Numbered from the stretch's first letter, positions 1-61,933 are shown. The stretch is DNA of 64,000 bases from Clostridia bacterium (GCA_017452445.1 JAFTMH010000002.1:723-64722); one strand, 5' to 3'. Notes: generated from the letters alone by a model not told the origin. A program made the numbers and translations.

Positions 1-1236
<1,236 letters not shown>

Positions 1237-2922: not shown

Positions 2923-2927
2923 CCATA

Positions 2928-42480: not shown

Positions 42481-43239
42481 CTAAAAGAAAACAAAAAGTG
42501 AAACAATTGAAATAAAAATCAAATAAACCGAAAACCATTTAAGATTTGCCTTTTGGGTAATTTTTATCATAATTTTGATTGCAAAAATGCCAATCAAAAA
42601 TGCAGACAAAAACGAAACGACAAGCCCCCATACTGGCAAGGTGATAGGCTGTTTTGTCGATACAATTTCAAAAATCTCTACAAACAGCGAAACGAAAATG
42701 ATTGGAATTGACATTAAAAACGAAAATTTTGCAACTGATTTTTTGTCACCACCAGCAAGCAGACCTGCACTTATGGTTGTGCCAGATCTTGACAATCCCG
42801 GAAATATTGCAAACCCCTGCGCAATCCCCATCGAAATCGCAGTTTTGTTGTTGAGTTTGATTTGTTTGTTTTTTGACAAAACTTCTCCCAAAAACAAAAT
42901 TGCAGCCGACAATGCAAAACACACAGGCAACAAACTTCCAGAAAAAGATTTTTTGACAAACGGCAAAAAAATCAAAGCCAAAACGCAAGTTGGCAAAGTT
43001 GCAAGAGCGAGCGAGATTGTCTGTTTTGAAAAAGGGTGTCTTATCATCTGCCAAATGTCCTTTGCAAAACAAACAATGATTGAGCAAAGTGTCGCCCCGT
43101 GCAACAAAATGCTGACAAACAAACTTTCTTTGATGCCAAACAATTTTGAAAACAACACCAAATGACCAGAAGAAGAAACCGGCAAAAATTCGGTCAAACC
43201 CTGAAGAATCCCCAAAAAAAATAAAGCAAGGAACTGCAT
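42481..43239 (-). CDS. uppP: undecaprenyl-diphosphate phosphatase
   Basis: 252 aa with LQGLTEFLPVSSSGHL and PGLSRSGTTI. SD AAGGAGAA, with a perfect TATAAT at 43258-43263 upstream. Confidence 0.93.
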   Translation of the reverse strand: MQFLALFFLGILQGLTEFLPVSSSGHLVLFSKLFGIKESLFVSILLHGATLCSIIVCFAKDIWQMIRHPFSKQTISLALATLPTCVLALIFLPFVKKSFSGSLLPVCFALSAAILFLGEVLSKNKQIKLNNKTAISMGIAQGFAIFPGLSRSGTTISAGLLAGGDKKSVAKFSFLMSIPIIFVSLFVEIFEIVSTKQPITLPVWGLVVSFLSAFLIGIFAIKIMIKITQKANLKWFSVYLIFISIVSLFVFF

Positions 43240-43291
43240 AACATTCTCCTTGCTTTATTATATTAAGATTTTTTCAAATTATTTGAAACAA

Positions 43292-46200
43292 TTATTGGTT
43301 TGAAAGTTTTCTTCTGCGTTTTCTTCTCTTTCTTGTAAGAACGAGAATGACAATCACTGTCACAACAAGTGCCGCTCCAAGAAGTCCTATCAAATAGAAA
43401 TACCAAGAAGCCGTTTTGTTTGAAAGCAATCTAGACGCTGTAGAAACTTCGCCAAACAAACCATCATAGCTTACTCTCTTGTAAACATAAGCGTTTTGCA
43501 CACCTCTGACTGTGTGTCCATTGAAGTTGAACACTCCTTCAAATGGGTGAAGAATTGTGCCGATTGGTGTCCAGAATTTTTCTGACAAATCAATGTTGCG
43601 TGCCAATTCGTAATGCATTCTAGAATAGAGTTCGCCATTTGCATTTCTTGCTCCACTGTTTACCAACTTCATAAGAAGAGTAAGTTCGGTCGTAGAGCCA
43701 ATCTTGTAAGGATTCTTTTCGCTTCCTTGTCCAGCAAAGCCGGTGATAAAGATTGATTCGTCTTCCCAATGCATACGGCTGTAAACAATTGACAAATTGA
43801 TAATGCCAACAATGTTGTTTTCTTGCATATATTCTGGTGTCAAAAGGATAGTGTTTGTGTCATCGTCATAAAACTCATACATATCCCCAAAAGATTTGCC
43901 ATAATTTTCGATTGTTATCGAAACAATTTCATATCTCTTTGTTGTCGCTGTTTCAAGCAAAATTTCTTTGCCTGTTTCCATCACAACAACTTTTGTCGCC
44001 CTGCCGTTATGCTTGATGCTTCCGGCAGCAGCAATGTTGTTTTGATCCAAAGTCTTGTCGACAATGTCGATTGGGTCAAACGAACTTGAAACATAAAGCG
44101 AAACGATTGTGTTGTCAAAGGTTGGTACAATTTCGATAATTTGATCTGCCATTGCTGTGCCGACCTTCATTTCAAAATAATAGAAACCTTTGTCGTATCT
44201 TCCAAATGTAATTTCAGCCCTATTCCAATAAACAGCAAAACCACTGTCAACCTTGATCTTAAATTCTACAGTGTCACCAACATTTACCAAAACTTGTGTG
44301 ATTGTTTTTTCAAAAGTTCCGTTTGAGTAATAACCCATTTCGTAAGTCGCCTTTGACAAGTTGAGTGAATATGCTGCAACTTGAACAATTTGTCCAAATT
44401 GAGGTGAATATTCTTCAAACCAAAGTGTTGCAGGTCTTCCTGACAAATTGATAACAAGTGTTGCCTCTTTGTCAATTTGCAATGTGATTGTTTGATCTTC
44501 AAAATCTTCGTCTTCATGCAAAACAGACCATGATTCAAATGTATATCCCCCAATTGGAAGAGCTTCGATTGTAAATGTTTTTTCGGTGTCAACATAATTT
44601 TCAAGCAACAATGCTTTTGATTGTGCATCAGCATTGTCTTGTGCGATCTTGAAGTTTGCTTCACCACCAGAAACCAAAACTTCGACATGTGCATAATAGA
44701 TGATTTTGATTTGACATTCTACAATTCTGTCAACATCATTTGTTGACCATGGAGTTTGTGGTGTGTAAATCAAAACATCTTGCAACCATACCCCTGCGTG
44801 ATTGCGTTGTGAAAGAATAAACGCATAGAATTTGTATCCCTCAAACTCTGGTGCAGAGATAACGATTGGTGTGTTGAATGACACTTCAATGTAGTGTGGT
44901 GATGTTTCGTAGAACCAAGAATTTGAGAAGTCAACACCTGAAACCATATCCTTTGCAGTGTATTTTGTGTCAATTTCAGGGACAAAGTTGAATTCGATTC
45001 TTGTCTTCAAATAAGCCCAATACAAATAAAGTGTAATTTCAATTTCGCCTGTCTCTTCGTTTACAACTTTTGCATGAGTGCTAAGTTTGTAAAGTGAAGT
45101 AATTGTATCCAAAATGTAACCACTTTCAGCCCAGCTGTTGATTGCTTCGCCGTTTGCGTTGATGTATCTTACACCAGCACCGTTTTCGTATGTGAAGAAA
45201 CCTTCAAAGCTGTGGTTTTCTCTCTTCATTGCATCAAATCTGAGTTTTCCACCCATAAATCCAAGACGATCATCAACAAGTGTGATGTTTGCTGTGTTTT
45301 CTTCAGAAAGATTGAGTGTTGAGCCAAATGTAACATCTTTGATGATTGCAAGTGTTTGACCATCTTCAACCAATCTTACAGAATACAATGATGTAAACAC
45401 CAAAATGCTGATTGTGTTTTCTTTGATATAATCTGCAACTTCAAATTTAATTCTTCCAGTATAGCCAGATTGTTCGATAACCAAATCTTCATATTCGAGT
45501 GATCCTTCAACAATCAAACCACTTTCATCAACAATGCCTGTGCCATCATTTTTCCAATAATAGCCGGCTCTGATGTAAGCATACACAACAAATCTGCTGT
45601 CTGTGTAAGCAGAAACTTGTGTGTAAGTCATTTGATTTCCTGAAGTCCAAACTTTGTGTGCATTGTTTTCATCAAGACCGATGTCAAATGCACCACCATC
45701 AACTCTGATATCGTTGTTTAAGAATGCCAAGTTGATTGTGTTGAGCACTGGCTTGATCAAGATTTCAAAGTCAAAATCTTCGCCACCGATAAATTCGTTG
45801 AACACAAACATAATGTAGTCGTCTGTGCGTTCGTAAATATCAAATGCGATATCATCTCTGCTTGAAACAATCTTGTCAAACACATAACCTTCTTTTTCGA
45901 TCACGAGTTTGATATATACTTCGTCACCTGTGTATGCGACAACAGAGAATTTCTTGTTGTCCAAAAGTTCTTCGTCAACAAAATCTTCTTCGCTGTAGTG
46001 GATTCTTGTTCCGTCAACATAACCAAATCTGTTTACATCTTCAGCATCTGCATTTGAAAGATTGATGTATGCAGTGTTGAAGTTGTTTTCTCTGATGCCA
46101 TCAATGTTGATTTCTGTGATAAAGTTGAATGATGAGCCATACGCTTCAATCAACAAATACAAAGTAAATTCTTGCACTTCTTCGTCAAACAACGAGCTTA

Positions 46201-49200
46201 TCAAAGAAACTGTTGCAAGTTGATCTGTGACAGAAGTTTTTGTCAAGAAAACAAATTCGTCTTCTTTCCAGAAACCATAACCTGCATATTTGTATCCTTC
46301 TTGCACTTCAAGCAAAATATTTTTGCTTGCACCGTAATAAATTTCGGCAGAAGTGATTTGCTCTGAAGTTTCTTCATCATAATATTTGCTTTCAACTTCT
46401 TCAAAAACATTTTCTGTTTTTGTAGGGTCGTTGTATTCGGTGTAGATTTGATAGTAGTTGTATGTTGCAAAAGTTACATAGAATTTCATTGTTGAGAAGA
46501 TTGCGTAAAGTCTTATATTGTCTGTAATTGTGTATCTTTGTCCGTTTGCCGAACCAAAAACATTTTCACCATCTTCACTCCAACCAGCAAAGCTATACAA
46601 AGTCGCAGTCTCATATGTCAATGTGATTGTTGACAAATATTCGACTTGAAGTGGATTTTCGCCATCTGCCAATGCGATATTGCCTGGCTCGTTGACAAGT
46701 TCTCTGTCTTGGTTGTATGACAACACTTCGATTGTCACAGTAAACTTGGCGCGAGCGTGATAGATTTTGATGTTGCCACTTGAATAAATTTCCGAAACAA
46801 TGATTTCGCATTGATTTGAAGAAATTTCTCTTGCTCTTGTTTCAAACTCGTTAGTTTCGTTGAAACCATAAGTGTAACCGTGTTTGTAAACAATGCCCAA
46901 TTTCAAAATTTGTGCTGTTTCAATCTCAACAACATCAACTTGTGTTGGATCTGCATATGTGAGATCTCCGACCATAACTCTTTCAACTTTTGTGATATCT
47001 TCAAATTCAATCGTAATACGGTTGATTTGTTCTTCTGCTTCAAAAGTGATTTCCAAATCTTGGAAGATGCCAACGATTTGCATAATGAGTGTGCCATTGC
47101 TCAATGTCTTGTCAACAATCAAACCTAAAGTGCTGTCAAACTCGACATTGTCTGTCATTTGATATCCTCTGCTTGCAGTCGCAACAAGTCTGATTGTTTT
47201 GCCTGTTTCGATGTCAAATGCTTTGTCAACCACTGTGATTGGGATTTCGTCAATCGTAATGTCAAATGCTGTTACGCCTTCAACAAACGATCCTTTTGTC
47301 ACAACCCTGTTTATTCTGGCAACAATTGGCAATGTGTAAACATAGTCATTTGCTGTCATCACAAACACAACTTGAAGTGATCCATCTGCATTTGTTGTGG
47401 TTGTAAATTCTGGAGCCCAAGTTGCTTCAAAAACATAACCTTGATTTGCAACAAGTTTAAATGAAATTTCTTTCAAATATTCGACATCGTTTGCAATATA
47501 CAAGTTTCCACCCTTTGTAAATTCGAGTGTTGAATTTTCAATTCGGCCATTCAAAACTGTAAACAAAATTGTGGATTTGTTGATATCCCATTGGGCTGTG
47601 AGTGTGTGTTCTTGTGTGTAAGACACAATGCTTGTGCCAACAATCATGTTTGAGTTGTGGTCAAACCAACCAACAAATTGATATCCGTATCTTGAAGGAG
47701 CTTCGTCCCAACCTTCTGCATCTTGATATGGTGCATCATAAGAAACTGCAATTGATTTTGTGATGCCGTCATAGCCATAATCCAAAATGACTACCAAACC
47801 AATTGATGTGTAGACAGGGACAAACGAAATGATTTCGTCATCAAATTCTGATTCCACAAATGATGAAATCAAAGTTGTAGAATACATCTCTTTTGCAATT
47901 TCTGTTGCACCAACTTTGAGTGCAATAGTTTCATAACCAACTCTGTCAATTGATGGCAAGAAATCCAACTTTCTTGATTCAATTTCAAAATAACTGAGTG
48001 TGAGTTGATATCTTCCCGTTTCAACCAAGTTGAAATTGCCTGCAACAATGGCAGCTTCTGGGTGTTCGGTCAAATCAAGTTCGAGTGTGATTTTTTGAGA
48101 TCTAAATCTTACAATCAAGTTGTATTCTCTTGTCACACTTTCAAATCCGATTCTGTTTCCATTGATAAGGATTGTTGTGCCATCTGCTTCATAAGCATTT
48201 GCCGAATCTCTATAGAAACCAAAGAATTTGCTGTGTGCATTTGCAGTTGCAATAAATGTTACACCCTTTCCATATTCGACTTGTTGACGATATGTTGTTG
48301 TAACAAATCTGTTTTCTGTTGAATCATCTCTATCATCAATTTCAACTGATCCATATTGAGCGTTTCTTCCGTTTTCGTCAGCAATTGTGATGTTGACATT
48401 AAACTTGTTTACACTCCACATAGCAGTAAATGTGATTGTGATATCTTCGTGATTTTTGTAATAATATTTGTTTAATGTATCTTCTTGATCTCTGAGCAAC
48501 GAATTCAAGAAGTTTGCAGTTTTTGCATCGTTTGCAACAATGACTGAAAGTTCGCCCTTGTTGTAAGTCGCAGTCATCGCATAGTTTGAAATCAAACTTT
48601 GCAAGAATGTATATTCTTCTGTTTCAGTAGCAATGTTTCTGAAAATCATTACCCAATGCGAGAATGAGTGTCCCGTTTTGCCAGTAAGCATTGTTGGAAA
48701 GTTTTTGTTTGTGCTTGTTTGTGTGTTTGCAGAGTTTGATGTAATGTTTGAAGCAGAAACAAATGGATATGCCAATTCTGAAATTTCAACCAATCCATTG
48801 ATGATGACATCAGATCTTGTTTCTTCTTCTGTGTTGTCATCAAATTCGATAAACACAATCACAGGGTTGATTACACCATGGTTCCATGTGGCAATTGTGT
48901 AGTTTTGACTGTCAACACCATCAATGTTGATTGTCACAACAATGCCTTCGCCAATCGTTTCTCTTGCATAAGTTGCAGAAACAATCGCAACATCATCATA
49001 AACCCCACCTTTTGTGATAATGCCTGTGATGCCAAGCACTTCTGTGCCATCTCGCACAAGTTCGACATCAACTGTTTCGTCATAAGTTTTTGTAAAGATT
49101 TCTTGGAAACTCAAGTTTGACATTGTTACCAAAGTGAGTTCAACCTTTTCAACCACAAATGAAGCACCTGTTGTTGATGGTTGTTCGGCATTGTCAACAA

Positions 49201-52200
49201 TAAACTTGTCGCAGAAGAAATCTTCAAACGAGTATGTCACAACTGCAGCATATTCGCCTGCATTCAAACAACCTGTAGAAGAATAGTTTGCTGCATCTGC
49301 TGCTGGGTTTACAGCAATTGACATTCTTGTCATATCATATCCTGTCATATCAACATCTGTGCGATAAGAATATTTCAAATCAATGTCATCGCCATACTTA
49401 AACTTTTGAGTGTTGAGCACGATAAAGATTTCGGCTCTTTCAATACGGCCTGTGATTGGTGTGCCATCTAATGTGGTCTTTCTTGTAAAGTCATAGTTTC
49501 CAATTGTGTCGCCAGCAATTGTGGCATCAACCGTATAATCAAATCCTGCATATTTGACAATCATTCCACCTGCATCAAGCAAACGGATTGTGAGCACGAT
49601 GTCTTCACCTTCAACAACACCGTCCAACATGTCTGCAGCATTTTCGTAAACAAACAATGCACTCTTGTTGTCAAACACTTTTGAAATAAGACTTTGTTTG
49701 AAATAAAGTTTCTTAGCCAAAATTCTGAAGAAGTAAGCATATTGAGCACCATTTTGTCCAAGCATTACATTGTAGTTGTTTGCTGTGATATCACCAGCAA
49801 AAATTTCGTATGTGCCAATGTTTTTAACATTTGATGCGTTCAAGAATTGCACTTGTGCAGTCAAGTTTTCAATCTGTCCAGCAATCTTTGTGTAAGTTCC
49901 GTTTGAAAGTGAATATGCATTCAAGTCAAACTCTCTCTTGACACCTTTGTTTTTAGAATTGTATATAACAAGTTTATACAATCCTGTACTTCTTTCTTCA
50001 ACAGCAACACTGTCATAAGCATTGCCATCATATTCGATAGTTGCAGTTGTGCCACCAAGTGTCACAGTTTCGTCATTTGAAAGCAACAAATAAACTGTTT
50101 CAATTGCTTTCAAAATTCTAAACATACCTTCGCTACTGTTGTCCACCAAACTCAAAAGAGTATAGTTTGTTTCTGATCCATCAAGTCTGCCGTCAATCAC
50201 ATGATAGTTGCCAACGGCAAATCCACTTTCTCTTGTCAAGATAAGTGTGACATCTTCAAACAATTGTGTTTGATATTCAAACGCAAACTCGTCAGTCAAG
50301 GTTTCTGGTGCACCATAACTGTATGTTGCCAAACCATTTGTCAAAAATTCGATGTCCAATTCGTAAGGTGTAATTTGCACCAAAGTTGGGACATAAGTGA
50401 TTTGGTAAGAGTTTGAAACGATTGTCGCTTCGATGTTGTAAGATCCAACATTCAAATATCCAAAATCGCTGTATCTTCCATCAACAACTGTAAATGCAAT
50501 TGTGTATTGTGATGTTGGCACAATGTTTCCATTTACCAACAATTGATGCCCAAACAAATTGCTTGAGTTGATCATCCCATAAACCCAAGAGGTTTGTGTA
50601 AGTGAAAGCACTGCACTTGCTTTTGTGATTTTGCCAACCGATTTTTCGATAGACAATTGATAGTTTGGTGCTTGAGCACCTTGCAAGAAGAGAGAAACTT
50701 CGATGTCTTCGCCAACTTCAGCAGTTTTGTATCTAACCAAAATTGAAACATTGTCACTTCCCAATTTTTCTGCAAAGTTTTCAATGATGCCAACTGAATC
50801 TCCAGAATATTCTTTTTCAAGAGTCAAGTTGTCTACATTGATCATTTGTTTTTCGATAATGAAGTAATATTCTTGATCAAAAACAACTGTTTCATATCCA
50901 CTTGCTTCTGCCTTCAAAACCAAACGATATGATCCAGCGTTTTGGAATGAGAACACTCCACCTGTTGCTGTGATTTCGATGCTGTCAAATGAAACATCGG
51001 CACTGTTGATTGTAACTTCGTTTTCATCTTCAAGTATAAAGAACTTCATGTCGATTGTTTGTGTCACAACGCTTGTGATCAACAACTGTTTGTTTGCACC
51101 ATCGGCAGAAAGAGCATAATTGCTTGAAATGTATTGTTTTGTCAACAAACTTGTTTGTGCTGGATCAAGTCTCAAATACAAAATGTTTGTTGCCAAGATA
51201 ACTTCAAACGCTTCGTTTCCTGCAGGAAGTAAAAGCACAACGCTTCCTTCCAAGAATGATGATTGGTTGAGTGCCAAATCCCACAACCCAACTTGTGCGT
51301 TTGCACCAACTGTTTGTCCGACAACTCTGTAAGAGATGTCAAGGAAGTCACCAGTCGAACCAACCGAATATACATCTTCATAAGCAGCTTTGATTTTTTC
51401 AACAGCTGTAACTGAGATATAACCTTGTCCAAGCGTCAATTCAATTTCCATAGCATCAATTGTAAAGCTTGGAGAAACAACAGTCATGTTGAAATCGTCA
51501 AATGTTGAAGTGATTTGCAAAGTATAATTTCCTTTGTAAACATAGCCACTTCCATTGATTTTGACATCGTCGGCAAGTCCATACCTGATGTTGTAATATC
51601 CATCAATCAACCACGAACGAACATCATTGCCTTCTGTGTCAACAACTTCTATGCTTGCAACTTTGTCAACGATGTTTCTCAAAGAAATGTCGCCATAAAC
51701 ATAGTTTGCACTTGTCATAGAAACCGTAAGTGTTGCACTACGCTTCAAAATTGTTGCTGTTGTGCTTGTTGCAGCAAGTGCATAGTTGCCAAGGTTTGTT
51801 GTTGGGTCGTTGTTGTTGAGTGAAAGTTCTACCTTAATATTTTCGCCAGCATGTGATGTGGCATAGGTTGCCAAAATATACATACCAACATATTCGTCGA
51901 GATCAACTGCGTTGCCGAGTTGGTCAAATGTTGCTGTTGTTTGTGCATCATACACTTTGTTGAAATCAATTGCCGAAACATCAATTTGAATTTGTCCAAC
52001 TTCAAATGCATAGTTTTGGTCAAATTCGACACTTGCAAAGTAACGGCTCATTTGTTCGCCAATTTCAAATCTGTAAGTATAAACTGCACTTTCATAAACG
52101 ATATCCAACAAATCTGTAGCATAGAATTTTGGTGTAATATCACCCATTTGTGCACGAATAAGGTTTTTGATTTCGAGATTTGTGATTTCGAGGTTTGTTG

Positions 52201-55200: not shown

Positions 55201-58200
55201 CTTTCAACGCAATGTCCAAAACATTTGATCCCGTGTCAATGTTGAAGCCAACTGCAGTATAATTTCCTTCGTAGAAATAATCTGCCAAATAAACTATTTG
55301 ATTTTGCCCGTTGTATTTCAATGCTGGCAAATAAGAATTATTCAATTCGAGTTGCAACGATTCTTGATCAAATGACCATTGTGCATAAATCGTAAGAGCT
55401 GGAGTCCTTGTCAAACTCATACCTCTAAGAAATTCGTCAAAGATATGATCTCTTGTGATTTCTGCAATATAATTTCCATCTTTGATGCTGAAGTTTAAGA
55501 AATGGAATCCTTTTCTTGTAAGCACAATGCTTGACAAGTCGACATATTCCAAATCATTTGATCCTACATACATCTGAGCAAAAGTTTTGTTGTAGTTGAT
55601 GTTGTATTCCAAATAGTTTTCTTTCTTGTCACCAGAAACAGCAATGCCATTTACTGTGTCTGCGCCGTTTGTGTAAATGTGGATTGTGTAAACACCTGAT
55701 CCCCACTCTGGCAACAAATAAACCATGTCAGCAGGAAGTCCTGTTTCTGGATCTTCAAGGATATAACGACCTTTTTCATCAAAAAGCGTGCTTCCAATAA
55801 ACAATCCAGCTGCATCAAATTCGGTAGTAACAGTTGTTCCGTCAAAATGAGTGTAATTCCAGCCAACAAGAGTGTAACCTGTGTATTTAATCTTTCTCAA
55901 AGTTGGCACGCCAGACAAGAGTTGGCAATCAGAGCCATATTCTTGATCATAAACAACTCTGACAGTAACACTTTCGTCATCTGTGTTTGGAGTAAAAATG
56001 CCTGTTCCTCTTCTAAACACAAGAGTATATTCGTTTGCTTTCCAAGCACGATAGATGTGCATTTCAATATAATTTACTTCGGCTGTTTCTTCCGTGAAGT
56101 AGTTGCTGTTGAGTTCGAGATAAGATCCATCAAGCGCCCCTTTGTTTCCTTCGACAACTGTCCAAGGTTTCATCGGTTCGAGTTGATAACCTTTTCTTGA
56201 AGCAAAAACTGCATTTGCAGAAAGGTCTGTTTCTTCGCCATTAAGCAAAAATTCGTATCCTTCTGTTGAGTCAAAAGTGACTGTTTGTGAGTAGAACATT
56301 TGAACAATCTCATAAACATCATCAGTTGTTTCATTTCCGTTGTAGTCATAAACAATTCCGTTGTCTTTGAAGTCGCCATAACTTGTTGCTGTGCCCGTAC
56401 CTGAATAAATGAAGATGCGAGCAGTTTTTTGTCTAAGCAAAGGTTTTAAATACAGTCTTCTTTCGTTTATGTATTGCTCGCCCTCTATTGGATTTTCGAG
56501 CATTTCTTTGACATAGTCGTGAAGATCAAAAATCAATGCCCCTTCAATCGTTTGCAAAACTCGACCTGCTTCGTTGACCAATTCGTAACCATCGAAGTAA
56601 TAGCCAAAGCCCGAATTTTTCACAAATGCCAAACCATTCAGCAACAATGGTTCTTCTGCATTTGAAGAATAAGAATAAATTTGTTCGGTGAGTGGTGTGG
56701 TTTCGCCTATCTTAAATTGAAGATCCATGATTTCAAATTCAAACAGATATTTTTCAACATCAACACCATCAACCCCATTTTCGTCAAGCAAAATGCCGTA
56801 GTCATAAACAGTGAGTGTGACCTGCTTTTTGATGTAAACTGCATAAATCCTTGTTTGATAACGAGTGTTGTATTCTTCTGGCACGATTGCCGGATCGACA
56901 TAATAATCCGAATAGAAGAAATCAAAACTTTCTGCCGTAAACAAATCTGGCCCAATTCTTATATAACCTTGATAGTTGTATGCTTCGATATACCAACCCT
57001 TGAAGAAGTATGCTTGATTTGATCCAAGTTGTGTTGAGATAAACATTCTGTCGTCATATTGAATGTTTTGCACTGCTGAATCATAATCTGCCTCTTCTCT
57101 AAGAGCGTGTGTTGTGATTTGTGAGTTTTCTTCTTCTGCAAGATAAACTCCATCGCCTGTGTCGTCCAATGTGAGTTCGCTTTCCAACACATCTCTGTCT
57201 TGATAAGACAAAAATCTTGTGCCATATTCGAGTTTGTAATAAACAATTTCACAAGTGATTGTGATTTCGTAGTTTCCTGGTTGAAGACCAACTGCGTTTG
57301 TCGCTCTGTTGTATGGCAAAGCAATTTCAAATGTGTCGTTTGTGACAGAAATGCTTGGCCCTCTGCCTTCTCTTGTAAAGTATCTCGTGTTGTCTTGCGC
57401 CAACGCATTCATATAATCTTTACATCTTTGTTCATAAGATTCGTCAGATTCGCCAATGCCTTTGTCAAGTGAAACCTTTCTTGGATTGATGTGAATGTTA
57501 TACAACTCTGATGTGTCTGTTGCAGATGTTGCAAAAATAAGTTGAGGTGTGCCCGATGCATCAAACACATTTCTGATTGTGTAGTATGGAGTGGTTGCAA
57601 TTTTGAATGTAACCGTGCCATCTTCTGTGATCAAATATTTTGGAATAGCAACATGCATAAATTCTGATGTTGGAGATTCGCCAGGCATGATCATATTTCC
57701 GTTTGAATCCACAATCTTGATTCTAAACGATGCTTCAGTATATTTTTCAACTGCCTTGATTTCGTAATAGTTTGACGAATAACCATGCCCAACTCTTACA
57801 AATTCAACAACAAATTTTCTTGGTTGTTTGATTCCACCAGCGCCCTCTGCTTCAATCAATGGTGTATGGGTTACGCCACCTTCTCCCCCAACTTTGATTT
57901 CATCTGGGAAATAGTCGTCCCAACCTGCTTGTGTGACATAATCGTTAAACACAATCGCAGAGTCTTCGGTGCTTGCCAAGAAGACAAAATCTGTGTCGGT
58001 GTAATGTTCAACCGTTTCTTCGGCCCAAGTGAGATAGTTGAGATTGAGATTGAAATTCAAAACATAATCAATTCTTGTTTCGTCTGTGTCATAATCACCA
58101 TATTGTGGAAGTGCTGAAATTTCGTAAATGTAAAGTTTTTCTTCGTTTTTATATCCATTTGCCATCACTTGATAGCGATATTCAAAAAACCTGTCGCCGG

Positions 58201-61200
58201 TCGCCGTCACATATCTCAAATACATTGAAAACCCTGATGGCGAAGTCTGATTAAACACAAGTTTAACTTCTTTTCCACCGTCCATATAACTCCAGCCACC
58301 ACTGCTGTTTGTGATAAGTTTCATAGTCCCAAATTCAGGGGCAGAAGAAATGATAGCCTTGTTTTTGACATCAAGTCCAACATGCAATCCTTGAAGGCCG
58401 TTGCCGTTGATTTTCAATTCGTATTGCACTTCGGCGTTGTCAACAACGGCGTAAGCATAAACATTTTGCACATCTGTCAAATTTGGTGCAAACGCATGAT
58501 AAAGTCCCGCTTCCACAACGTGTTGAACAAGATCTCTTTGCACAGTCAAATTTAAAGTATAGTTTCCGATAAGGTTGTAGAACAAAACTCCTTCAGTCGC
58601 CAAAGTTTTCTTTTGTGCTGAGAAGTATCCTGTTGCACCTTTGTCGGCATTGCCTACAGTCAAAATACCAAAGTTGGTGTTTTTCTTTCCACTTTGCAAA
58701 TCACCAAATGAAACTGCACCAGGGAAACTGTATCCCTCTTTGAGATTGACTTTAAGCATAATATATTGCGTTTTGTCAACACTGTTTGTTGTGTCGTATG
58801 AAAATGTGAAAGATCCGTTTGTCATTTCAGAAAATTCTACGACAGTTTCCACTTTGAAATCTTGCGCACTTCTGCGATATGTAATTGATTCGATCGCATC
58901 GGCAAGTTCGAAATCGCCAGCATAATCTCTATAGTCGTTGTATGTGTCTTCTTGCGCCAATTGCTTAAATTTTACAGTAAAGTTGTAAGTGGTTGGGAGT
59001 GCATTTCCTGTGATTTTTGATGTGGCAGCCTTCCAGCTTGCGTGCCATTGTGCATTGTCAATTCTGCTGTTTGCAAATTGACCTCTGCTCACAGCACTTG
59101 AAAATTTGCTTGCACTGTAAGTTGTCCAAATTTCGGCAACTTCAAAGTCGTTGCTTCTCATATACACCCTGCTGCCATTTTTGATAACATAAGGAGTGTT
59201 GAACAACTCTGGATAATCCTCTTCAAGCACAGAGTCATATTCGAGGTTGTAATCAATGTAAACAACAGGTTTGCCTTGTGCGTTTTTGCTTACATTCCAA
59301 GTTGTGTCTGCAATATATTCTGCAAAGAAGTTGTCTCTTTCATAATCGTTGTAGATGATTTTAACCTTTACAGCAGTTGATGTGTTGTAAAAGCCCATAT
59401 CATTCCAAAGTGCAACAAGTCTAATTGTGGTTGCACCGGTTTCAAGTTTTGCCAAAGCATCTGTCACATTGTCCACTTTTGCGTTTGAAAGCGAAACAAC
59501 TTGTCCGTTTGTCACACTTGCAACTTGATAACCTGCAAGTTTGAAACCTTTTTTGATAAGCAAATCTAAATATGATTTTGCATATTCTTCATTGTCAGAA
59601 GTTGTTGGCAACATTGTGTTGTATGTTTCGTCAATCTTGATTGGATTCTTTTTTGCATCTTGATAAATTTTTCCATCAGAAGTCAACACCAATTTGTAAA
59701 TGCCTTTGTTTACTTTGTTTGTTGCTTGCTTTGATGCGACTGTTGAAGAATAGAAGATTCCACCAGCAGAGTCAATTTCCACTTGATAAAGTCTTTCGTA
59801 TTGATTTACTTTTAAATTTGAAAGATTGATATTGTGACTGTTTTCGCCAGCAACAATAAACAGCTTTTTGTTTGTAACAGCAGTGCCGATCGATGGGTTT
59901 GCAGTGTCTGTGGCCGAAGCACAATTTTCGTCACGGCAGTTTATGATGTAAGTTTCGCCAGCGACAGAACCTACAAAGGTTCCTTTGCCAACGGTGTTGC
60001 TTGTTGAAGCTGTCAAATAAATGACATTTCTCATTGTCAAATTTTTGATGACTGCGCCATTTGAAGTTTTTCCAAACAAACCATAATGAGAAAAACTTTC
60101 GTGTTGCGAACATGTAAGCCCCGAAATTGCAAATCCATTTCCATCAAAAACATCTTGGAAAGGTTTTGTTTCTTCAAAAATTCCGATTGGCATCCAAGTT
60201 TTTCCAGTCAAGTCAATGTCGTTTTGCAACGCATAATAAACTTTTGCCCCAGACTTAACTTTTTGTGCCTCATGGTTGAGTTTGTTGTAATAGAATGAAA
60301 CATATCCCAAATCAGCCGCTGTGAAAATTTTGTAAGGATTGTCAACCGTGCCTTCGCCTTTCAAAACATCAAGCCCCATTTCGGTTTTGCCAGAATAATA
60401 TGTGTCGTGATTGTTTGAGAAAATATTTGTGTTTCGCAAATATGGCAAACCACCATTTATACCAAACTCAATTCCCCAAATTGTGTCAAAATTCCAAAGT
60501 GTTTTGTAAGTCTTAAATCCAGCAACTCCACTGTCAATTCTTTCGCCAGTCCAATATCTGTCACTGCCATAAAAACCTTCGATATAAGCAAAATCTTTAA
60601 GTTCTTTCACATATCTTGAGCCAGAAGTTTCAATGTTGTCATAACACTTTGTCACTTTTGGAGTTTTTGTTGTTGTATACAAACTCTTGTTTGCAGGCAA
60701 TGTTGCCAAAGCAAAACAGTCAGTAAGTTGAGCATTTGTCGCATTGATGACACCAACAAGTCCACCAATGGTTGCATTCATGCCAATTGACGAAGAGGTG
60801 CCTGAAATGCTTCCTGCAAAATAAGAAGTGTGAAGCACATATTTGAATGTGTTTTTCAATATGTTGTCAACAGCACCAACAAGACCACCTGCTGTAATTT
60901 CTTTTGCCGAAAGTTTGATGCTTACAGTTGAAAACGAATCATAAATTTCTGGGTTGAAAGATCCAGAGACTCCCTTGCCTACACTTCCTACAAGACCACC
61001 AACATAAACCCCTGTGCCAGAAACTGCAAAAGATCCTTCAGTATAGCACTCGTGAATGTTTGCAACAGATGTCCCAACAAGACCACCAATGTTTGCAGTT
61101 GAAGAAGAAACATTAAGTCTCAATACTCTGCTTTTGCTGATTGTTGCATCAGCAGTGTTGGCAAAACCAACAAGTCCACCAAAGTGTGTAACAGATGTGC

Positions 61201-61819
61201 CGCCTGTGTAAGTAATTTTGTCAACAGAACAATTTTCAATTGTGTTTGGGTTTGATATGTATGAAAACTGAGCAACCAATCCACCAACATATTGGGCAAC
61301 CGAAGCATATGTAATATTTTCAAGGTTTAAATTGCGAATGTTTCCCACAACCATTCCAAAAAAGCCAGCATATGGTCCATCAGCAGCAATTTTGATGTTT
61401 GTGATTGTATGACATTGTCCATCAAAAGTTCCTTCAAAAAAGCTGTTTACTCCAATTGGTGTCCAAGCGTAATTTTTTAAGTCAATATCAGTTTCAAGGT
61501 AGATAGTGTAGTTTTGATAAGTTTTAGATCCAGAGTAAGTGTTTATTGTGTGTGCAAAATATGCAAGACCAGCAGCAGAACGAATTCTAACTTCATTTGA
61601 ATTGTTGCTATAAAAGTCTGCCGATGTGACCTGAGTTTCAGAAATTTGTGAAACACCGTCCCATTCGCTGGTTGGCGTAATTCCGTTCCATTCACTTACA
61701 CTTGATGTTTCTGCATAAACAAGATTGTTTTTCTCGCTGCTTACATCAAAAAAACTAAGGGCAGTAAAAAGCCCAAAAACTAAAATTAAAATTGAAACAA
61801 ATAAACTACGCTTCTTCAT
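43292..61819 (-). CDS. giant (6175 aa) surface protein: GLUG-type modules at both ends, a long array of InlB-B/Listeria-Bacteroides-type and Ig/MBG-like repeats, and a C-terminal TM anchor
   Basis: Uninterrupted 18,528-nt ORF with SD GGAGA. Signal peptide MKKRSLFVSILILVFGLFTALSFF. Six GGLVG/A turns lie in aa ~180-360 and end with WNFDTIWGI…NGGLPYL. DIDL…W-x-PIG modules occur at aa ~85-150 (ahead of the GGLVG turns), aa ~490-640 and aa ~6020-6130. There are dozens of G-[YF]-x-[FL]-x-G-[WF] repeats (GYTLVGWNY, GYQFVGWFD, YSFAGWSE, GYTFESWSV). The C-terminus is WYFYLIGLLGAALVVTVIVILVL followed by TRKRRKRRRKLSNQ (TM ~43337-43405). Confidence 0.9.
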   Translation of the reverse strand: MKKRSLFVSILILVFGLFTALSFFDVSSEKNNLVYAETSSVSEWNGITPTSEWDGVSQISETQVTSADFYSNNSNEVRIRSAAGLAYFAHTINTYSGSKTYQNYTIYLETDIDLKNYAWTPIGVNSFFEGTFDGQCHTITNIKIAADGPYAGFFGMVVGNIRNLNLENITYASVAQYVGGLVAQFSYISNPNTIENCSVDKITYTGGTSVTHFGGLVGFANTADATISKSRVLRLNVSSSTANIGGLVGTSVANIHECYTEGSFAVSGTGVYVGGLVGSVGKGVSGSFNPEIYDSFSTVSIKLSAKEITAGGLVGAVDNILKNTFKYVLHTSYFAGSISGTSSSIGMNATIGGLVGVINATNAQLTDCFALATLPANKSLYTTTKTPKVTKCYDNIETSGSRYVKELKDFAYIEGFYGSDRYWTGERIDSGVAGFKTYKTLWNFDTIWGIEFGINGGLPYLRNTNIFSNNHDTYYSGKTEMGLDVLKGEGTVDNPYKIFTAADLGYVSFYYNKLNHEAQKVKSGAKVYYALQNDIDLTGKTWMPIGIFEETKPFQDVFDGNGFAISGLTCSQHESFSHYGLFGKTSNGAVIKNLTMRNVIYLTASTSNTVGKGTFVGSVAGETYIINCRDENCASATDTANPSIGTAVTNKKLFIVAGENSHNINLSNLKVNQYERLYQVEIDSAGGIFYSSTVASKQATNKVNKGIYKLVLTSDGKIYQDAKKNPIKIDETYNTMLPTTSDNEEYAKSYLDLLIKKGFKLAGYQVASVTNGQVVSLSNAKVDNVTDALAKLETGATTIRLVALWNDMGFYNTSTAVKVKIIYNDYERDNFFAEYIADTTWNVSKNAQGKPVVYIDYNLEYDSVLEEDYPELFNTPYVIKNGSRVYMRSNDFEVAEIWTTYSASKFSSAVSRGQFANSRIDNAQWHASWKAATSKITGNALPTTYNFTVKFKQLAQEDTYNDYRDYAGDFELADAIESITYRRSAQDFKVETVVEFSEMTNGSFTFSYDTTNSVDKTQYIMLKVNLKEGYSFPGAVSFGDLQSGKKNTNFGILTVGNADKGATGYFSAQKKTLATEGVLFYNLIGNYTLNLTVQRDLVQHVVEAGLYHAFAPNLTDVQNVYAYAVVDNAEVQYELKINGNGLQGLHVGLDVKNKAIISSAPEFGTMKLITNSSGGWSYMDGGKEVKLVFNQTSPSGFSMYLRYVTATGDRFFEYRYQVMANGYKNEEKLYIYEISALPQYGDYDTDETRIDYVLNFNLNLNYLTWAEETVEHYTDTDFVFLASTEDSAIVFNDYVTQAGWDDYFPDEIKVGGEGGVTHTPLIEAEGAGGIKQPRKFVVEFVRVGHGYSSNYYEIKAVEKYTEASFRIKIVDSNGNMIMPGESPTSEFMHVAIPKYLITEDGTVTFKIATTPYYTIRNVFDASGTPQLIFATSATDTSELYNIHINPRKVSLDKGIGESDESYEQRCKDYMNALAQDNTRYFTREGRGPSISVTNDTFEIALPYNRATNAVGLQPGNYEITITCEIVYYKLEYGTRFLSYQDRDVLESELTLDDTGDGVYLAEEENSQITTHALREEADYDSAVQNIQYDDRMFISTQLGSNQAYFFKGWYIEAYNYQGYIRIGPDLFTAESFDFFYSDYYVDPAIVPEEYNTRYQTRIYAVYIKKQVTLTVYDYGILLDENGVDGVDVEKYLFEFEIMDLQFKIGETTPLTEQIYSYSSNAEEPLLLNGLAFVKNSGFGYYFDGYELVNEAGRVLQTIEGALIFDLHDYVKEMLENPIEGEQYINERRLYLKPLLRQKTARIFIYSGTGTATSYGDFKDNGIVYDYNGNETTDDVYEIVQMFYSQTVTFDSTEGYEFLLNGEETDLSANAVFASRKGYQLEPMKPWTVVEGNKGALDGSYLELNSNYFTEETAEVNYIEMHIYRAWKANEYTLVFRRGTGIFTPNTDDESVTVRVVYDQEYGSDCQLLSGVPTLRKIKYTGYTLVGWNYTHFDGTTVTTEFDAAGLFIGSTLFDEKGRYILEDPETGLPADMVYLLPEWGSGVYTIHIYTNGADTVNGIAVSGDKKENYLEYNINYNKTFAQMYVGSNDLEYVDLSSIVLTRKGFHFLNFSIKDGNYIAEITRDHIFDEFLRGMSLTRTPALTIYAQWSFDQESLQLELNNSYLPALKYNGQNQIVYLADYFYEGNYTAVGFNIDTGSNVLDIALKDANLTSLTIRFESLNAAKDQGQMAFSVKDCLTAGAYTATLYLSVDDEAKYLSLGTVWSAALNFNITVDAAEIEIDDSVTSEEVYVANIKRILAPYISATQKSNLESRVSLATVATFVRGLESGLDALSDIQVYEYTMVKYYFISVTNDASVLIYKNWTYQDYLDLRTSNEELADAIVNQMKYFDFYQYANNSGKQEIASYKSLSLKSPTVSNVSSDLEVVSLEINSHEILAQTLYTARVYVRSLGLGRGVTNYNLSYDEATGRYYIEGLQVFILPQVLVVENRQAEKSSYYNAYQTPEIEWQGSREYVDFEGQLHYLIEGNIYVAATLTTSTVGNKDGDTQFNFVDPTNYLYFVETSIVRKVGEDLIRSLSDFKLVMSESDIYTILNVNGIIDVIIDARYLTRNEGLLSFEQVDNALATKLLKIVSVTYTQGGKETTIREENGLAERAYSDGGAYFEIYTNNENMVYARINPAVTSITVIATETNLSEYISLYKWSQYAEFDVDGTMASDGTYTINRSDIEISEDSLTEVTYYAIYTDLVKTVYHYGFPEGFGLDTTAEGVLKLGSSTAADVRQPSVAGFQLIELQAERLDGSRVNYANIFTGAIGAGGGKTFVGLSSSAKFVTVNFYALWKAEEMQTYQILTTKKYPVEQFLGLNQEEVVGFDNKNTLIFTYTYKWLFEGELVKEGEVLQLAGNGTFNQTGNYSLVVTCSIIEEFKSALYDPGTGGTTTATINFYLEFVRNKIIAIQFPDEVTSVYNGQDQANQWGIEITFTQYNASTDDYQIAYSTATLYNSTVGTLYTQMYFNGGSDPVAEMKNAGYYIVEVCYSPASYILEDGLTQTSFVYTITPFVADIAELNVGFTKKFNTADPVLKVDTIFTAEMVTLIFARPLGEDVGIYNLYFEDIAQDYKGNYVFKMGGTTLFENGTKTVDCSTTAVGEFEIQKTGALKFAYETSAVNPAHIVRGYSNKGYTFTVNSDFVMQILSDGNVLNTFNLKLYDVSTNLEITNLEIKNLIRAQMGDITPKFYATDLLDIVYESAVYTYRFEIGEQMSRYFASVEFDQNYAFEVGQIQIDVSAIDFNKVYDAQTTATFDQLGNAVDLDEYVGMYILATYATSHAGENIKVELSLNNNDPTTNLGNYALAATSTTATILKRSATLTVSMTSANYVYGDISLRNIVDKVASIEVVDTEGNDVRSWLIDGYYNIRYGLADDVKINGSGYVYKGNYTLQITSTFDDFNMTVVSPSFTIDAMEIELTLGQGYISVTAVEKIKAAYEDVYSVGSTGDFLDISYRVVGQTVGANAQVGLWDLALNQSSFLEGSVVLLLPAGNEAFEVILATNILYLRLDPAQTSLLTKQYISSNYALSADGANKQLLITSVVTQTIDMKFFILEDENEVTINSADVSFDSIEITATGGVFSFQNAGSYRLVLKAEASGYETVVFDQEYYFIIEKQMINVDNLTLEKEYSGDSVGIIENFAEKLGSDNVSILVRYKTAEVGEDIEVSLFLQGAQAPNYQLSIEKSVGKITKASAVLSLTQTSWVYGMINSSNLFGHQLLVNGNIVPTSQYTIAFTVVDGRYSDFGYLNVGSYNIEATIVSNSYQITYVPTLVQITPYELDIEFLTNGLATYSYGAPETLTDEFAFEYQTQLFEDVTLILTRESGFAVGNYHVIDGRLDGSETNYTLLSLVDNSSEGMFRILKAIETVYLLLSNDETVTLGGTTATIEYDGNAYDSVAVEERSTGLYKLVIYNSKNKGVKREFDLNAYSLSNGTYTKIAGQIENLTAQVQFLNASNVKNIGTYEIFAGDITANNYNVMLGQNGAQYAYFFRILAKKLYFKQSLISKVFDNKSALFVYENAADMLDGVVEGEDIVLTIRLLDAGGMIVKYAGFDYTVDATIAGDTIGNYDFTRKTTLDGTPITGRIERAEIFIVLNTQKFKYGDDIDLKYSYRTDVDMTGYDMTRMSIAVNPAADAANYSSTGCLNAGEYAAVVTYSFEDFFCDKFIVDNAEQPSTTGASFVVEKVELTLVTMSNLSFQEIFTKTYDETVDVELVRDGTEVLGITGIITKGGVYDDVAIVSATYARETIGEGIVVTINIDGVDSQNYTIATWNHGVINPVIVFIEFDDNTEEETRSDVIINGLVEISELAYPFVSASNITSNSANTQTSTNKNFPTMLTGKTGHSFSHWVMIFRNIATETEEYTFLQSLISNYAMTATYNKGELSVIVANDAKTANFLNSLLRDQEDTLNKYYYKNHEDITITFTAMWSVNKFNVNITIADENGRNAQYGSVEIDDRDDSTENRFVTTTYRQQVEYGKGVTFIATANAHSKFFGFYRDSANAYEADGTTILINGNRIGFESVTREYNLIVRFRSQKITLELDLTEHPEAAIVAGNFNLVETGRYQLTLSYFEIESRKLDFLPSIDRVGYETIALKVGATEIAKEMYSTTLISSFVESEFDDEIISFVPVYTSIGLVVILDYGYDGITKSIAVSYDAPYQDAEGWDEAPSRYGYQFVGWFDHNSNMIVGTSIVSYTQEHTLTAQWDINKSTILFTVLNGRIENSTLEFTKGGNLYIANDVEYLKEISFKLVANQGYVFEATWAPEFTTTTNADGSLQVVFVMTANDYVYTLPIVARINRVVTKGSFVEGVTAFDITIDEIPITVVDKAFDIETGKTIRLVATASRGYQMTDNVEFDSTLGLIVDKTLSNGTLIMQIVGIFQDLEITFEAEEQINRITIEFEDITKVERVMVGDLTYADPTQVDVVEIETAQILKLGIVYKHGYTYGFNETNEFETRAREISSNQCEIIVSEIYSSGNIKIYHARAKFTVTIEVLSYNQDRELVNEPGNIALADGENPLQVEYLSTITLTYETATLYSFAGWSEDGENVFGSANGQRYTITDNIRLYAIFSTMKFYVTFATYNYYQIYTEYNDPTKTENVFEEVESKYYDEETSEQITSAEIYYGASKNILLEVQEGYKYAGYGFWKEDEFVFLTKTSVTDQLATVSLISSLFDEEVQEFTLYLLIEAYGSSFNFITEINIDGIRENNFNTAYINLSNADAEDVNRFGYVDGTRIHYSEEDFVDEELLDNKKFSVVAYTGDEVYIKLVIEKEGYVFDKIVSSRDDIAFDIYERTDDYIMFVFNEFIGGEDFDFEILIKPVLNTINLAFLNNDIRVDGGAFDIGLDENNAHKVWTSGNQMTYTQVSAYTDSRFVVYAYIRAGYYWKNDGTGIVDESGLIVEGSLEYEDLVIEQSGYTGRIKFEVADYIKENTISILVFTSLYSVRLVEDGQTLAIIKDVTFGSTLNLSEENTANITLVDDRLGFMGGKLRFDAMKRENHSFEGFFTYENGAGVRYINANGEAINSWAESGYILDTITSLYKLSTHAKVVNEETGEIEITLYLYWAYLKTRIEFNFVPEIDTKYTAKDMVSGVDFSNSWFYETSPHYIEVSFNTPIVISAPEFEGYKFYAFILSQRNHAGVWLQDVLIYTPQTPWSTNDVDRIVECQIKIIYYAHVEVLVSGGEANFKIAQDNADAQSKALLLENYVDTEKTFTIEALPIGGYTFESWSVLHEDEDFEDQTITLQIDKEATLVINLSGRPATLWFEEYSPQFGQIVQVAAYSLNLSKATYEMGYYSNGTFEKTITQVLVNVGDTVEFKIKVDSGFAVYWNRAEITFGRYDKGFYYFEMKVGTAMADQIIEIVPTFDNTIVSLYVSSSFDPIDIVDKTLDQNNIAAAGSIKHNGRATKVVVMETGKEILLETATTKRYEIVSITIENYGKSFGDMYEFYDDDTNTILLTPEYMQENNIVGIINLSIVYSRMHWEDESIFITGFAGQGSEKNPYKIGSTTELTLLMKLVNSGARNANGELYSRMHYELARNIDLSEKFWTPIGTILHPFEGVFNFNGHTVRGVQNAYVYKRVSYDGLFGEVSTASRLLSNKTASWYFYLIGLLGAALVVTVIVILVLTRKRRKRRRKLSNQ

Positions 61820-61904
61820 TGGATTTCTCCTTGATATTACTTAAATTTCTACCTGTTAATATTTTACAATAAAATCATGAAATAAACAAACAAAAATTTA
61901 AAAG

Positions 61905-61933
61905 ATATTATATATTTTTAATATATATAATAT
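61905..61933. repeat. AT-only inverted repeat in the 5' region of the giant gene
   Basis: ATATTATATAT (61905-61915), 7 nt, ATATATAATAT (61923-61933). The arms are perfectly complementary 11-nt sequences, ~90-115 nt upstream of the ATG at 61819. Confidence 0.6.

Follow-up and report, generated by a model that had tools for sequence, protein, structure and literature searches.

What function could lead a bacterium with a reduced genome to maintain a gene of 6175 codons? This question is raised by a 64,000-nucleotide (nt) stretch of DNA from a Clostridia bacterium (GCA_017452445.1, JAFTMH010000002.1:723-64722), referred to here as the window, in which one open reading frame (ORF) on the minus strand encodes a giant protein of 6175 amino acids (aa). 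A first-pass annotation, made from the sequence alone, had described this protein as an adhesin-like giant carrying the same head module at both ends. The closest named genome is a metagenome-assembled genome (MAG) of a Candidatus Caccovivens sp., and the host is a Candidatus Caccovivens of the family UBA1242, Christensenellales, an uncultured, genome-reduced and putatively partner-dependent gut Firmicute. Caccovivens corresponds to GTDB genus UBA11517 within family UBA1242, order Christensenellales (PMC8035907). UBA1242 genomes comprise 0.67-1.6 Mbp, mostly less than 1 Mbp (PMC12306168), so that the giant gene would account for about 1-3% of the genome. They lack biosynthetic capacities and standard transporters, and their metabolites are predicted to come from other cells (PMC12306168). 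Dependence on other cells has been inferred for UBA1242-like gut lineages (PMC12306168, PMC13155120). The analysis reported here identifies the giant gene as a representative of a previously undescribed core gene family of this lineage that is fixed in length, non-repetitive and syntenic. Judged from sequence and structure models, its product is probably a Sec-exported, type I membrane-anchored surface fibre and would serve the dependent bacterium as a tether-like adhesin.

Translation of the window yielded a single terminal stop codon, in agreement with the uninterrupted ORF described before, and the ribosome-binding site AAGGAGA lies 7 nt upstream of the ATG. With stop codons making up about 6.8% of random codons at 37% GC, the chance of 6175 open codons is around 1e-189 by our own arithmetic. 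The window comes from a short-read MAG, so the ORF might in principle be chimeric or otherwise an artefact of assembly, contain collapsed repeats or be decaying in the manner of a pseudogene. However, two independent assemblies in Logan (SRR12529361 and SRR12529367) contain the exact uppP gene of the window, which is the downstream neighbour of the giant gene. In each of them a 6175-residue product is called upstream of uppP, and the last 9948 nt of the gene are identical to the window. The allele of an ENA assembly likewise encodes 6175 aa and differs at 129 nt, whereas that of the GTDB species representative GCA_045650745.1 encodes 6166 aa and shows 733 differences, none of them an indel across codons 1967-6175. 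The ORF is intact in all related strains and species examined, and ENA, NCBI and Logan assemblies from different projects provide intact orthologues of 5.8-6.6 thousand amino acids (kaa). Near-identical internal repeats that could collapse during assembly were not found in the giant protein by tiled BLAST and phmmer. The ratio of non-synonymous to synonymous substitution rates (dN/dS) amounts to 0.058-0.082 in the last 3316 codons and to about 0.1 further upstream, values that fall within the range of five neighbouring housekeeping genes (0.023-0.119). The gene is under purifying selection over its whole length, as strong as that acting on its housekeeping neighbours. Assembly collapse, chimerism and internal stops had been named in the first-pass annotation as grounds for abandoning its reading; the independent assemblies agree instead, and an artefact is so improbable that we regard it as refuted for practical purposes.

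The relatives of the protein became apparent in an exhaustive HMMER search over 1.84 billion cluster representatives with the C-terminal 1200 aa as query. About 40 representatives, each standing for a 50%-identity cluster and 5819-6416 aa long, matched this region end to end with 27-80% identity, and the aligned part was located at their own C-termini. Further members consist of 6350-6649 aa, and some seemingly short matches are fragments of these. A word-indexed search with the same query returned almost nothing (one weak match). When the N-terminal 700 aa were used, such a search detected no close relative and yielded generic GLUG/Peptidase_M26_N proteins of at most 1215 aa and at most 29% identity, which carry PF07581 and PF05342. 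A full-length alignment of the giant protein with 34 members (35 sequences) proved collinear: the members align over 5315-6160 of the 6175 positions, with identities of 24-38% and of 81% for the closest member. The comparison of orthologue lengths that had been suggested along with the first-pass annotation revealed near-constancy, with a family length of 6149 ± 154 aa (coefficient of variation, CV, 2.5%) and a spread of only a few residues inside 90%-identity clusters (e.g. 6034-6042). With diverged uppP orthologues (63-83% identity) as anchors, a gene for 5853-6369 aa was found immediately upstream of uppP in seven out of seven loci; the intact orthologues beside uppP encode 6166, 6175, 6163, 6161, 6134, 5853, 6369 and 6083 aa. 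Members such as MBP3619262.1 and MBP3431942.1 bear the NCBI pipeline name 'InlB B-repeat-containing protein [Clostridia bacterium]'. The features that define this UBA1242 family of about 6 kaa, i.e., collinearity, a signal peptide, three GLUG-derived parts, a transmembrane (TM) helix with a basic tail and synteny with uppP, are all present in the giant protein. Literature searches on GLUG function and on giant genes in Christensenellales yielded nothing on the family, and a characterised giant-adhesin family with the same end-to-end layout, the other observation that would have spoken against novelty, was not encountered in PDB, profile or literature searches.

Hydropathy analysis revealed only two hydrophobic segments. 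The first forms the core of a signal peptide, predicted to be cleaved after VYA, and the family-conserved motif SxDASVWDG is located just C-terminal of it. The second is the C-terminal TM helix, and the sequence that follows it is TRKRRKRRRKLSNQ. Signal peptide, single C-terminal TM helix and basic tail establish an N-out, C-in topology, with an acidic ectodomain of about 6100 residues (~682 kDa, isoelectric point ~4.5). Note that the KRKKxREELxxK tail is kept in most family members and is more specific than a generic positive-inside stop-transfer signal. LPXTG, LP.[TSA][GAN], HEXXH, lipobox and CxxQ motifs were not found in the 6175 aa, and neither SLH or other wall-binding domains nor peptidase or other catalytic families were detected by Pfam and NCBIfam in the giant protein or its orthologues. 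The earlier description of a signal peptide, a C-terminal anchor with a tail and a protein devoid of catalytic, LPXTG or SLH motifs is in agreement with hydropathy, motif and Pfam analyses. A GG_III-CTERM match of the TM region (NCBIfam, E 0.069) was dismissed as not significant.

The distal end of the protein is related to GLUG modules, for which we built a custom profile of 310 positions from 25 canonical modules cut from homologues. A canonical module starts with the lead-in GxGTxxxPYxI, continues via DIDL, WxPIG and FDGNGHxI to GLFG and VGGLVG rungs, and ends with the closing cap WDFxxIW...YPxL. Copy 1 matches this profile with aa 103-461 (positions 25-310, 126 bits). It has six GGLVG rungs and the closing cap WNFDTIWGI..GGLPYL, is without only the GxGTxxNP start, and possesses a lead-in helix of its own from aa 74 (YYIRSAKGFxYFA), as evident from profile-profile comparison of the family. 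Copy 2 (aa 488-669, positions 1-141, 88 bits) continues into a separate beta-sheet domain at approximately aa 645-712. The motifs quoted in the first-pass annotation, including the six GGLV[GA] turns, are all present at the residues given there. Pfam GLUG (PF07581) scored 23 bits on the giant protein at a cut-off of 20.5, while the three lead-in modules alone gave nothing meaningful in Pfam at E <= 10. The only PDB sequence match of the tip was 3n6z (E 3.5e-6). An AlphaFold2 (AF2) model of aa 36-760, calculated from a 14-sequence family alignment with a predicted local distance difference test score (pLDDT) of 76, shows a right-handed beta-helix followed by a second lead-in helix that bears a few rungs and by the separate sheet domain. 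In Foldseek it retrieved 3n6z (E 7.8e-6, TM-score 0.58 on the target), a match that holds for copy 1, along with IgA1-protease N-terminal domains, PL6 alginate lyases, AlgE epimerases, pectin methylesterases, the Lactobacillus reuteri SRRP adhesin and phage tailspikes. The Pfam score and the similarity to 3n6z corroborate the proposed adhesin-like architecture with a GLUG-type beta-helix head. Peptidase_M26_N tips have been predicted to be fibrillar-adhesin domains resembling carbohydrate-binding pectate-lyase-like domains and are filed under 'ambiguous function' (PMC9210967). An unrelated giant, P0323 (4384 aa), contains at least 11 tandem complete GLUG modules (profile positions 10-310 each) and no C-terminal TM helix, which demonstrates that other proteins employ this module as a long tandem array.

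A third GLUG copy next to the membrane had been taken for a recurrence of the same head module, an odd design for a fibrillar adhesin. This part of the first-pass annotation does not hold. The C-terminal copy covers positions 1-85 of the 310 profile positions only (aa 6030-6129, 44 bits) and is a fragment of about 100 aa that comprises the cap and the first rung. In all full-length members it ends at profile position 84-91, some ten residues before the TM helix, and the layout with two tip copies and the C-terminal fragment is common to all of them, copy 2 extending over profile positions 1 to about 130 in the family. The same cut-off point is found in distant relatives of 4.3-5.5 kaa (P0322, P0324 and P0327). 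Furthermore, a complete 1592-aa protein ('Clostridiales bacterium'), whose length is stable in 39 cluster members, combines an N-terminal GLUG module with the same C-terminal fragment. Within the giant protein, aa 488-589 and aa 6030-6129 are 32% identical (E 7e-12), hhalign probabilities among the three lead-in copies reach 97.7-99.4%, and the paralogous copies share 32-37% identity overall. Since the identity of the C-terminal fragment between orthologues is higher (0.53), the duplication predates the family. We conclude that the C-terminal copy is not a head but an autonomous unit of cap and first rung that has been maintained. These two parts of the very common GLUG beta-helix module can thus persist on their own close to the membrane. 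Split beta-helix complementation of copy 1 by the C-terminal fragment was considered as a necessity and ruled out, as copy 1 has both a lead-in helix and a closing cap.

The more than 5000 aa between tip and membrane had been described as beta-rich repeats. The beta domains are there, whereas repeats are not visible at the level of the single sequence: a self-BLAST of the whole protein produced nothing but the identity match, tiled BLAST and phmmer on the single sequence detected almost no internal similarity, and an iterative hidden Markov model started from the sole visible internal pair recruited no further copies. Relationships emerged when 140-residue slices of the family alignment were compared with the full family profile by hhalign. 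In this way, a super-repeat holding YDG/MBG-type domains (KVYD.., KEYS.., KTYD..) and related Flg_new-like units at aa 737-930, 1874-2166 and 4621-4831 were uncovered, whereas three stretches (aa ~930-1870, ~2170-3010 and ~5030-6030) are without a related copy in the giant protein. The proposed Flg_new/InlB-B and YDG/MBG stalk classes find support in the family: List_Bact_rpt (NCBIfam TIGR02543) scores 29 bits in the giant protein and YDG remains below the Pfam cut-off there, but orthologues reach 33 and 43 bits for YDG (cut-off 25), 57 bits for Flg_new_2 and up to 81 bits for Flg_new. An AF2 model of aa 5480-6175 (20-sequence alignment, pLDDT 86) is built of five consecutive all-beta domains (about 108 residues apiece), which lead to the compact lead-in fragment and finally to a long TM helix. 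Its top Foldseek match was the Bacillus anthracis TIE protein 6fwv (E 2.8e-8), followed by SpyCEP, SpaC, PitA, pilins, Cna B-repeats and SdrD; the low global TM-scores of these matches are expected for flexible chains. For the stalk, neither sequence nor profile searches of the PDB returned a match. The CxxQ sign of a thioester is absent from the giant protein, and Cys5702 is partly conserved and replaced in some members. In summary, about 50 diverged beta domains of the Flg_new, YDG/MBG and Ig-like types form a chain between tip and membrane.

Conservation along this chain is uneven. Family identity is high in the lead-ins (0.48 in aa 101-150, 0.41-0.52 in aa 501-600 and 0.53 in aa 6051-6100) and lowest in aa 900-1500 (0.09-0.27), where indels are most frequent; occupancy amounts to 0.87-1.0 from aa 2100 to the end. 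In comparison with the closest relative, identity is 70-76% in aa 1-1000 and 85-92% in aa 3750-6175, and all 15 indel residues fall inside the first 800 aa. Among the 213 positions kept in at least 34 of the 35 sequences, G, Y, F, W, N and P predominate, which points to structural constraint without a catalytic signature. Apart from the lead-ins, a segment of the stalk at aa 5500-5750 stands out from the family average of about 0.3. It carries the motif WxYLKTRIxFxxVP...SNSWFY...YIEVxFNT...APExxGYKFYxF, lies at a distance of 400-650 residues from the membrane and is matched by nothing in Pfam or the PDB.

Table 1 Features of the giant gene and its downstream neighbour, with positions counted from the first letter of the window.
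Feature	Position	Strand	Basis or remark
Giant ORF, 6175 aa	43292..61819	-	Identical in Logan SRR12529361 and SRR12529367
Shine-Dalgarno sequence GGAGA (inside AAGGAGA), ATG 7 nt downstream	61826..61830	-	Read from upstream sequence
Signal peptide, aa 1 to ~36: KKR, hydrophobic core aa 4-28	61712..61819	-	Hydropathy and family alignment
GLUG copy 1, aa 74-461, complete right-handed beta-helix	60437..61600	-	Custom profile, Pfam GLUG, 3n6z sequence match, AF2 and Foldseek
GLUG copy 2, aa 485-669, lead-in and first rungs, no closing cap	59813..60367	-	Custom profile, hhalign, AF2
Distal stalk, aa 700-2100	55520..59722	-	Most variable, indel-rich; identity to giant protein 0.09-0.30, occupancy 0.6-0.9
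Super-repeat of ~380 aa, ~3.5 copies, aa 3010-4364	48728..52792	-	hhalign probabilities up to 99.5%
Flg_new/List_Bact_rpt region, aa 4621-4831 (GYQFVGWFD), and ~95-aa tandem domain, aa 4760-5031	46727..47959	-	TIGR02543, Pfam, hhalign
Stalk conservation peak, aa 5500-5750, two all-beta domains, no known family	44570..45322	-	Identity 0.46-0.61, top at aa 5601-5650
Flg_new_2 (divergent InlB B-repeat), aa 5741-5787	44459..44599	-	Pfam 39 bits, cut-off 23.6; 13 of 20 family members
C-terminal GLUG lead-in fragment, aa 6027-6131, cap helix and first rung	43427..43741	-	Custom profile, hhalign; AF2 pLDDT 84-91
C-terminal TM helix, aa 6139-6164	43328..43405	-	Hydropathy; AF2 long helix; all orthologues
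Basic cytoplasmic tail, aa 6165-6175 (RKRRKRRRKLSNQ)	43295..43327	-	Family consensus KRKKxREELxxK
uppP (BacA), 52 nt downstream of giant gene	42481..43239	-	Conserved neighbour

How does this protein relate to known surface systems? With fibrillar adhesins (Monzon et al. 2022, PMC9210967) it shares the export signal, a beta-helix at the distal end, Flg_new and Ig-like domains in the stalk and attachment to the cell surface via its C-terminus. Flg_new is a listed stalk domain (PMC9210967), and Flg_new, Flg_new_2 and YDG are all present, with repeats visible only by profile-profile comparison. In contrast to fibrillar adhesins, however, the stalk domains have diverged beyond pairwise detection and follow a fixed order without an evident tandem array of similar repeats, family length is constant and constraint is at housekeeping level, the anchor is an atypical TM helix rather than LPXTG, and a beta-helix cap fragment resides beside the membrane. 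The family is at odds with the usual view that fibrillar adhesins evolve fast and vary in repeat number. A similar overall layout is known from Ebh of Staphylococcus aureus (~1.1 MDa), which has a signal peptide, a rod-like ectodomain, a single C-terminal membrane span and a positively charged cytoplasmic tail, and for which roles in envelope integrity and adhesion have been proposed. Ebh is highly repetitive and built of helical FIVAR/GA-type repeats, whereas the UBA1242 protein is all-beta and non-repetitive; the two are not related in sequence or domains, and no PDB or Pfam link between them was found. SRRPs are serine-rich, glycosylated, aSec-exported and LPXTG-anchored. The binding region of the L. 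reuteri SRRP (5nxk) is likewise a right-handed beta-solenoid on a long surface protein of a gut Firmicute, although the match is weak (E 0.056, TM-score 0.16-0.27). BACOVA_03286 (3n6z, 'putative IgA1 protease') and the N-terminal helix of M26 IgA1 proteases (6xja, 7uvk, 7jgj) are homologous to the tip and contain GLUG rungs. While the helix is an accessory domain of an enzyme in IgA1 proteases, it forms the tip of a 6-kaa fibre here, and in the absence of an M26 domain and of HEXXH the protein does not belong to the M26 IgA1-specific metalloendopeptidases. Nor is it a sortase-anchored MSCRAMM or pilin, since an LPXTG-type signal is lacking, even though its stalk fold resembles this class, or an S-layer/SLH-anchored envelope protein. 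For the TIE proteins and pilins with intramolecular thioester, isopeptide or ester cross-links, the observations point both ways: 6fwv heads the Foldseek list, and a CxxQ motif is absent.

Giant ORFs of Omnitrophota, Patescibacteria and Nanohaloarchaeota provide another point of reference. In all of these cases, as in UBA1242, an outsized surface gene resides in a tiny genome, dependence on other cells is putative and a role in attachment has been proposed. The ORFs of these symbionts and predators encode more than 20-85 kaa with many TM helices and often SecA-like domains, and have been characterised as 'poorly conserved', having few domains in common (PMC10066038; bioRxiv 10.1101/2023.11.21.568195). 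Compared with the Omnitrophota-type giants (West-Roberts et al.), which are defined by more than 20-30 kaa, numerous TM helices and SecA DEAD-like domains, the protein studied here is much smaller (~6 kaa), has a single TM helix and no SecA domain and belongs to a tightly conserved Firmicutes family. It falls outside that group, and its family runs counter to the view that giant ORFs of symbionts are poorly conserved.

On balance, we favour a role as a tether and consider the giant protein the best current candidate for the attachment of UBA1242 bacteria to a partner. About 49 stalk domains of 3.5-4.5 nm each would give a fibre of approximately 170-220 nm, i.e., on the order of 200 nm, an estimate that assumes about 108 aa per domain as in the modelled part and is extrapolated from two AF2 segments. 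Such a stalk would carry the beta-helix tip through the cell wall to the surface of a partner, where the pectate-lyase-like helix predicted by the model may bind a glycan or another surface polymer on a microbe, on host mucus or on epithelium. Binding could tether a bacterium that is unable to make its own amino acids, nucleotides and lipids to a source of nutrients. The fast-evolving, indel-prone distal third would fit adaptation to a ligand or partner, and the conserved proximal 700 residues including the cap fragment would fit a constant role in anchoring and in spanning the wall. Two more giants with a signal peptide and a C-terminal TM helix in the window provide supporting context, and giant ORFs have been proposed as adhesins in other symbionts with reduced genomes (PMC10066038). 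Several observations weigh against a tether nonetheless. The GLUG-type beta-helix is listed under 'ambiguous function' (PMC9210967). Conservation peaks near the membrane and not in a recognisable binding pocket, nearly all invariant residues are structural, and the two segments from which the fibre length was extrapolated represent 23% of the protein. Adhesins usually vary in repeat number and evolve fast, and the giant protein differs in this respect. Its fixed length, the non-repetitive stalk and the housekeeping-level constraint along the whole protein also fit a structural role in the envelope.

In principle, the protein could be an element of the envelope itself, a fixed-length spacer, ruler or coat comparable to an S-layer or the Velamenicoccus-type 'coat', with the beta-helix and the cap fragment mediating contacts within the envelope. 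Such a function would account for a length CV of 2.5% over 24-38% identity, a collinear non-repetitive stalk, dN/dS values at housekeeping level and the strongest conservation in the membrane-proximal part, and it is in line with the invariable linkage to uppP, a gene for envelope-precursor recycling from which no terminator separates the giant gene, and with three such giants occupying 48% of the window. We consider it unlikely nonetheless, because SLH, CWB and other wall-binding or lattice-forming domains are missing and a single-pass anchor holds a linear chain of Ig-like and beta-grasp domains whose structural matches are pilus and MSCRAMM stalks, not lattices. Moreover, the distal third evolves faster and takes indels, as would be expected for an outward-facing interaction end. 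Conservation of the cap fragment bears on a different possibility, namely that the fibres self-associate. The unsatisfied beta-helix edge of the fragment would then dimerise or dock the tip of the same or a neighbouring molecule, giving rise to loops, bundles or a canopy. The invariant truncation point (profile position 85-91) in all members and in the 'mini' protein of 1592 aa, the rank of the fragment among the most conserved segments and its confident modelling as a compact unit are compatible with this idea; yet copy 1, with its own lead-in helix and closing cap, does not need complementation, and the fragment could be a mere small pedestal domain. We regard self-association as highly improbable.

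It could further be argued that the protein is a fibrillar enzyme, whose tip, a polysaccharide lyase, epimerase, esterase or protease-associated substrate-capture domain, is held off the cell to degrade surface polymers of the partner or host glycans and thereby release nutrients. Structural matches of the tip model indeed include PL6 alginate lyases and AlgE epimerases, along with pectin methylesterases, tailspike depolymerases and the IgA1-protease N-terminal domain. Catalysis has been raised as a possibility for Peptidase_M26_N-type tips (PMC9210967), and giant Omnitrophota proteins have been proposed to degrade surface polysaccharides of their prey (PMC10066038). However, neither HEXXH nor an M26 catalytic domain nor any catalytic family was recognised by Pfam and NCBIfam in the giant protein or its orthologues, and TM-scores to the enzymes are low (0.13-0.31), as explained by a generic beta-helix fold. 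In addition, the invariant residues of the head are G, F, W, L and I together with the D of DIDL and the H of FDGQGH, which are common to all GLUG modules. An enzymatic function therefore appears improbable.

If the protein is a tether, it may do more than passive sticking. It is possible, though doubtful, that the family constitutes a lineage-defining attachment organelle of UBA1242, a tether or ruler of fixed length that would set the distance to the partner and be indispensable for the dependent lifestyle. The cap fragment could in that case be a new autonomous module that oligomerises the fibres or couples them to an envelope or uptake partner, possibly with signalling via the KRKKxREEL tail. 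Animals and humans widely harbour UBA1242 and comparable gut lineages with reduced genomes, none of which has ever been grown in culture. A gene that is intact, makes up about 1-3% of the genome, is constant in length and place and is constrained like a housekeeping gene offers a testable handle on their contact with partners. In practical terms, its product may be used as an antigen for labelling and sorting of cells or as bait for a partner or ligand, and the gene may be used as a marker.

The immediate neighbours of the giant gene are uppP and genes for a P-type ATPase, HolB and a PSP1/RicT-type protein, as noted before, with trpS upstream. Co-transcription with uppP is possible, as uppP follows the giant gene in all seven related loci. 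A terminator-like hairpin was not found between the two genes, in accordance with the earlier statement that a convincing terminator is lacking before uppP. The 52-nt spacer (43240-43291, minus strand) contains a hairpin made up of A and T only (TTTCAAA-TAA-TTTGAAA) with an A run behind it, whereas a G+C-rich terminator is missing. The TATAAT ascribed to uppP exists, at a position 1-2 nt away from that reported, and promoter-like sites near uppP are no commoner than in shuffled sequence. GC skew over the giant gene (window positions 44001-62000) is -0.03 to -0.09 compared with -0.16 to -0.21 in flanking genes on the same strand, at equal GC content. The weak skew probably reflects amino-acid composition (rich in T, V, G, Y and N) and not foreign origin. 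Horizontal acquisition is unsupported: GC content equals that of the neighbours and the position is syntenic across the lineage.

Two further ORFs of the window, for 2743 aa (4592-12823, plus strand) and 1369 aa (13669-17778, minus strand), encode proteins of the same topology as the giant protein, in which an N-terminal signal-like segment is combined with a single TM helix at the C-terminus and a basic tail of short length. Both are without a GLUG module; the 2743-aa ORF has no Pfam match and the 1369-aa ORF a weak match to Big_13. Together with the giant gene they take up 30.9 kb of the 64-kb window. The window start cuts through a bacterial 23S rRNA gene, of which the 5' 1218 nt are present (positions 1-1236, minus strand; Rfam RF02541, 1089 bits). 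Near the other edge, upstream of trpS, an ORF with an Anticodon_2 domain (63282-63950, minus strand) is probably the C-terminal part of another aminoacyl-tRNA synthetase. In a diverged relative (ENA ERZ28654397 scaffold_298, locus L011, 10869-18183), the ATPase-holB-PSP1 block after uppP is replaced by genes for a 1361-aa Flg_new protein, MscL, an EcoRI-type methylase and a GmrSD/HNH protein, a pattern suggestive of local rearrangement or of the insertion of a defence island.

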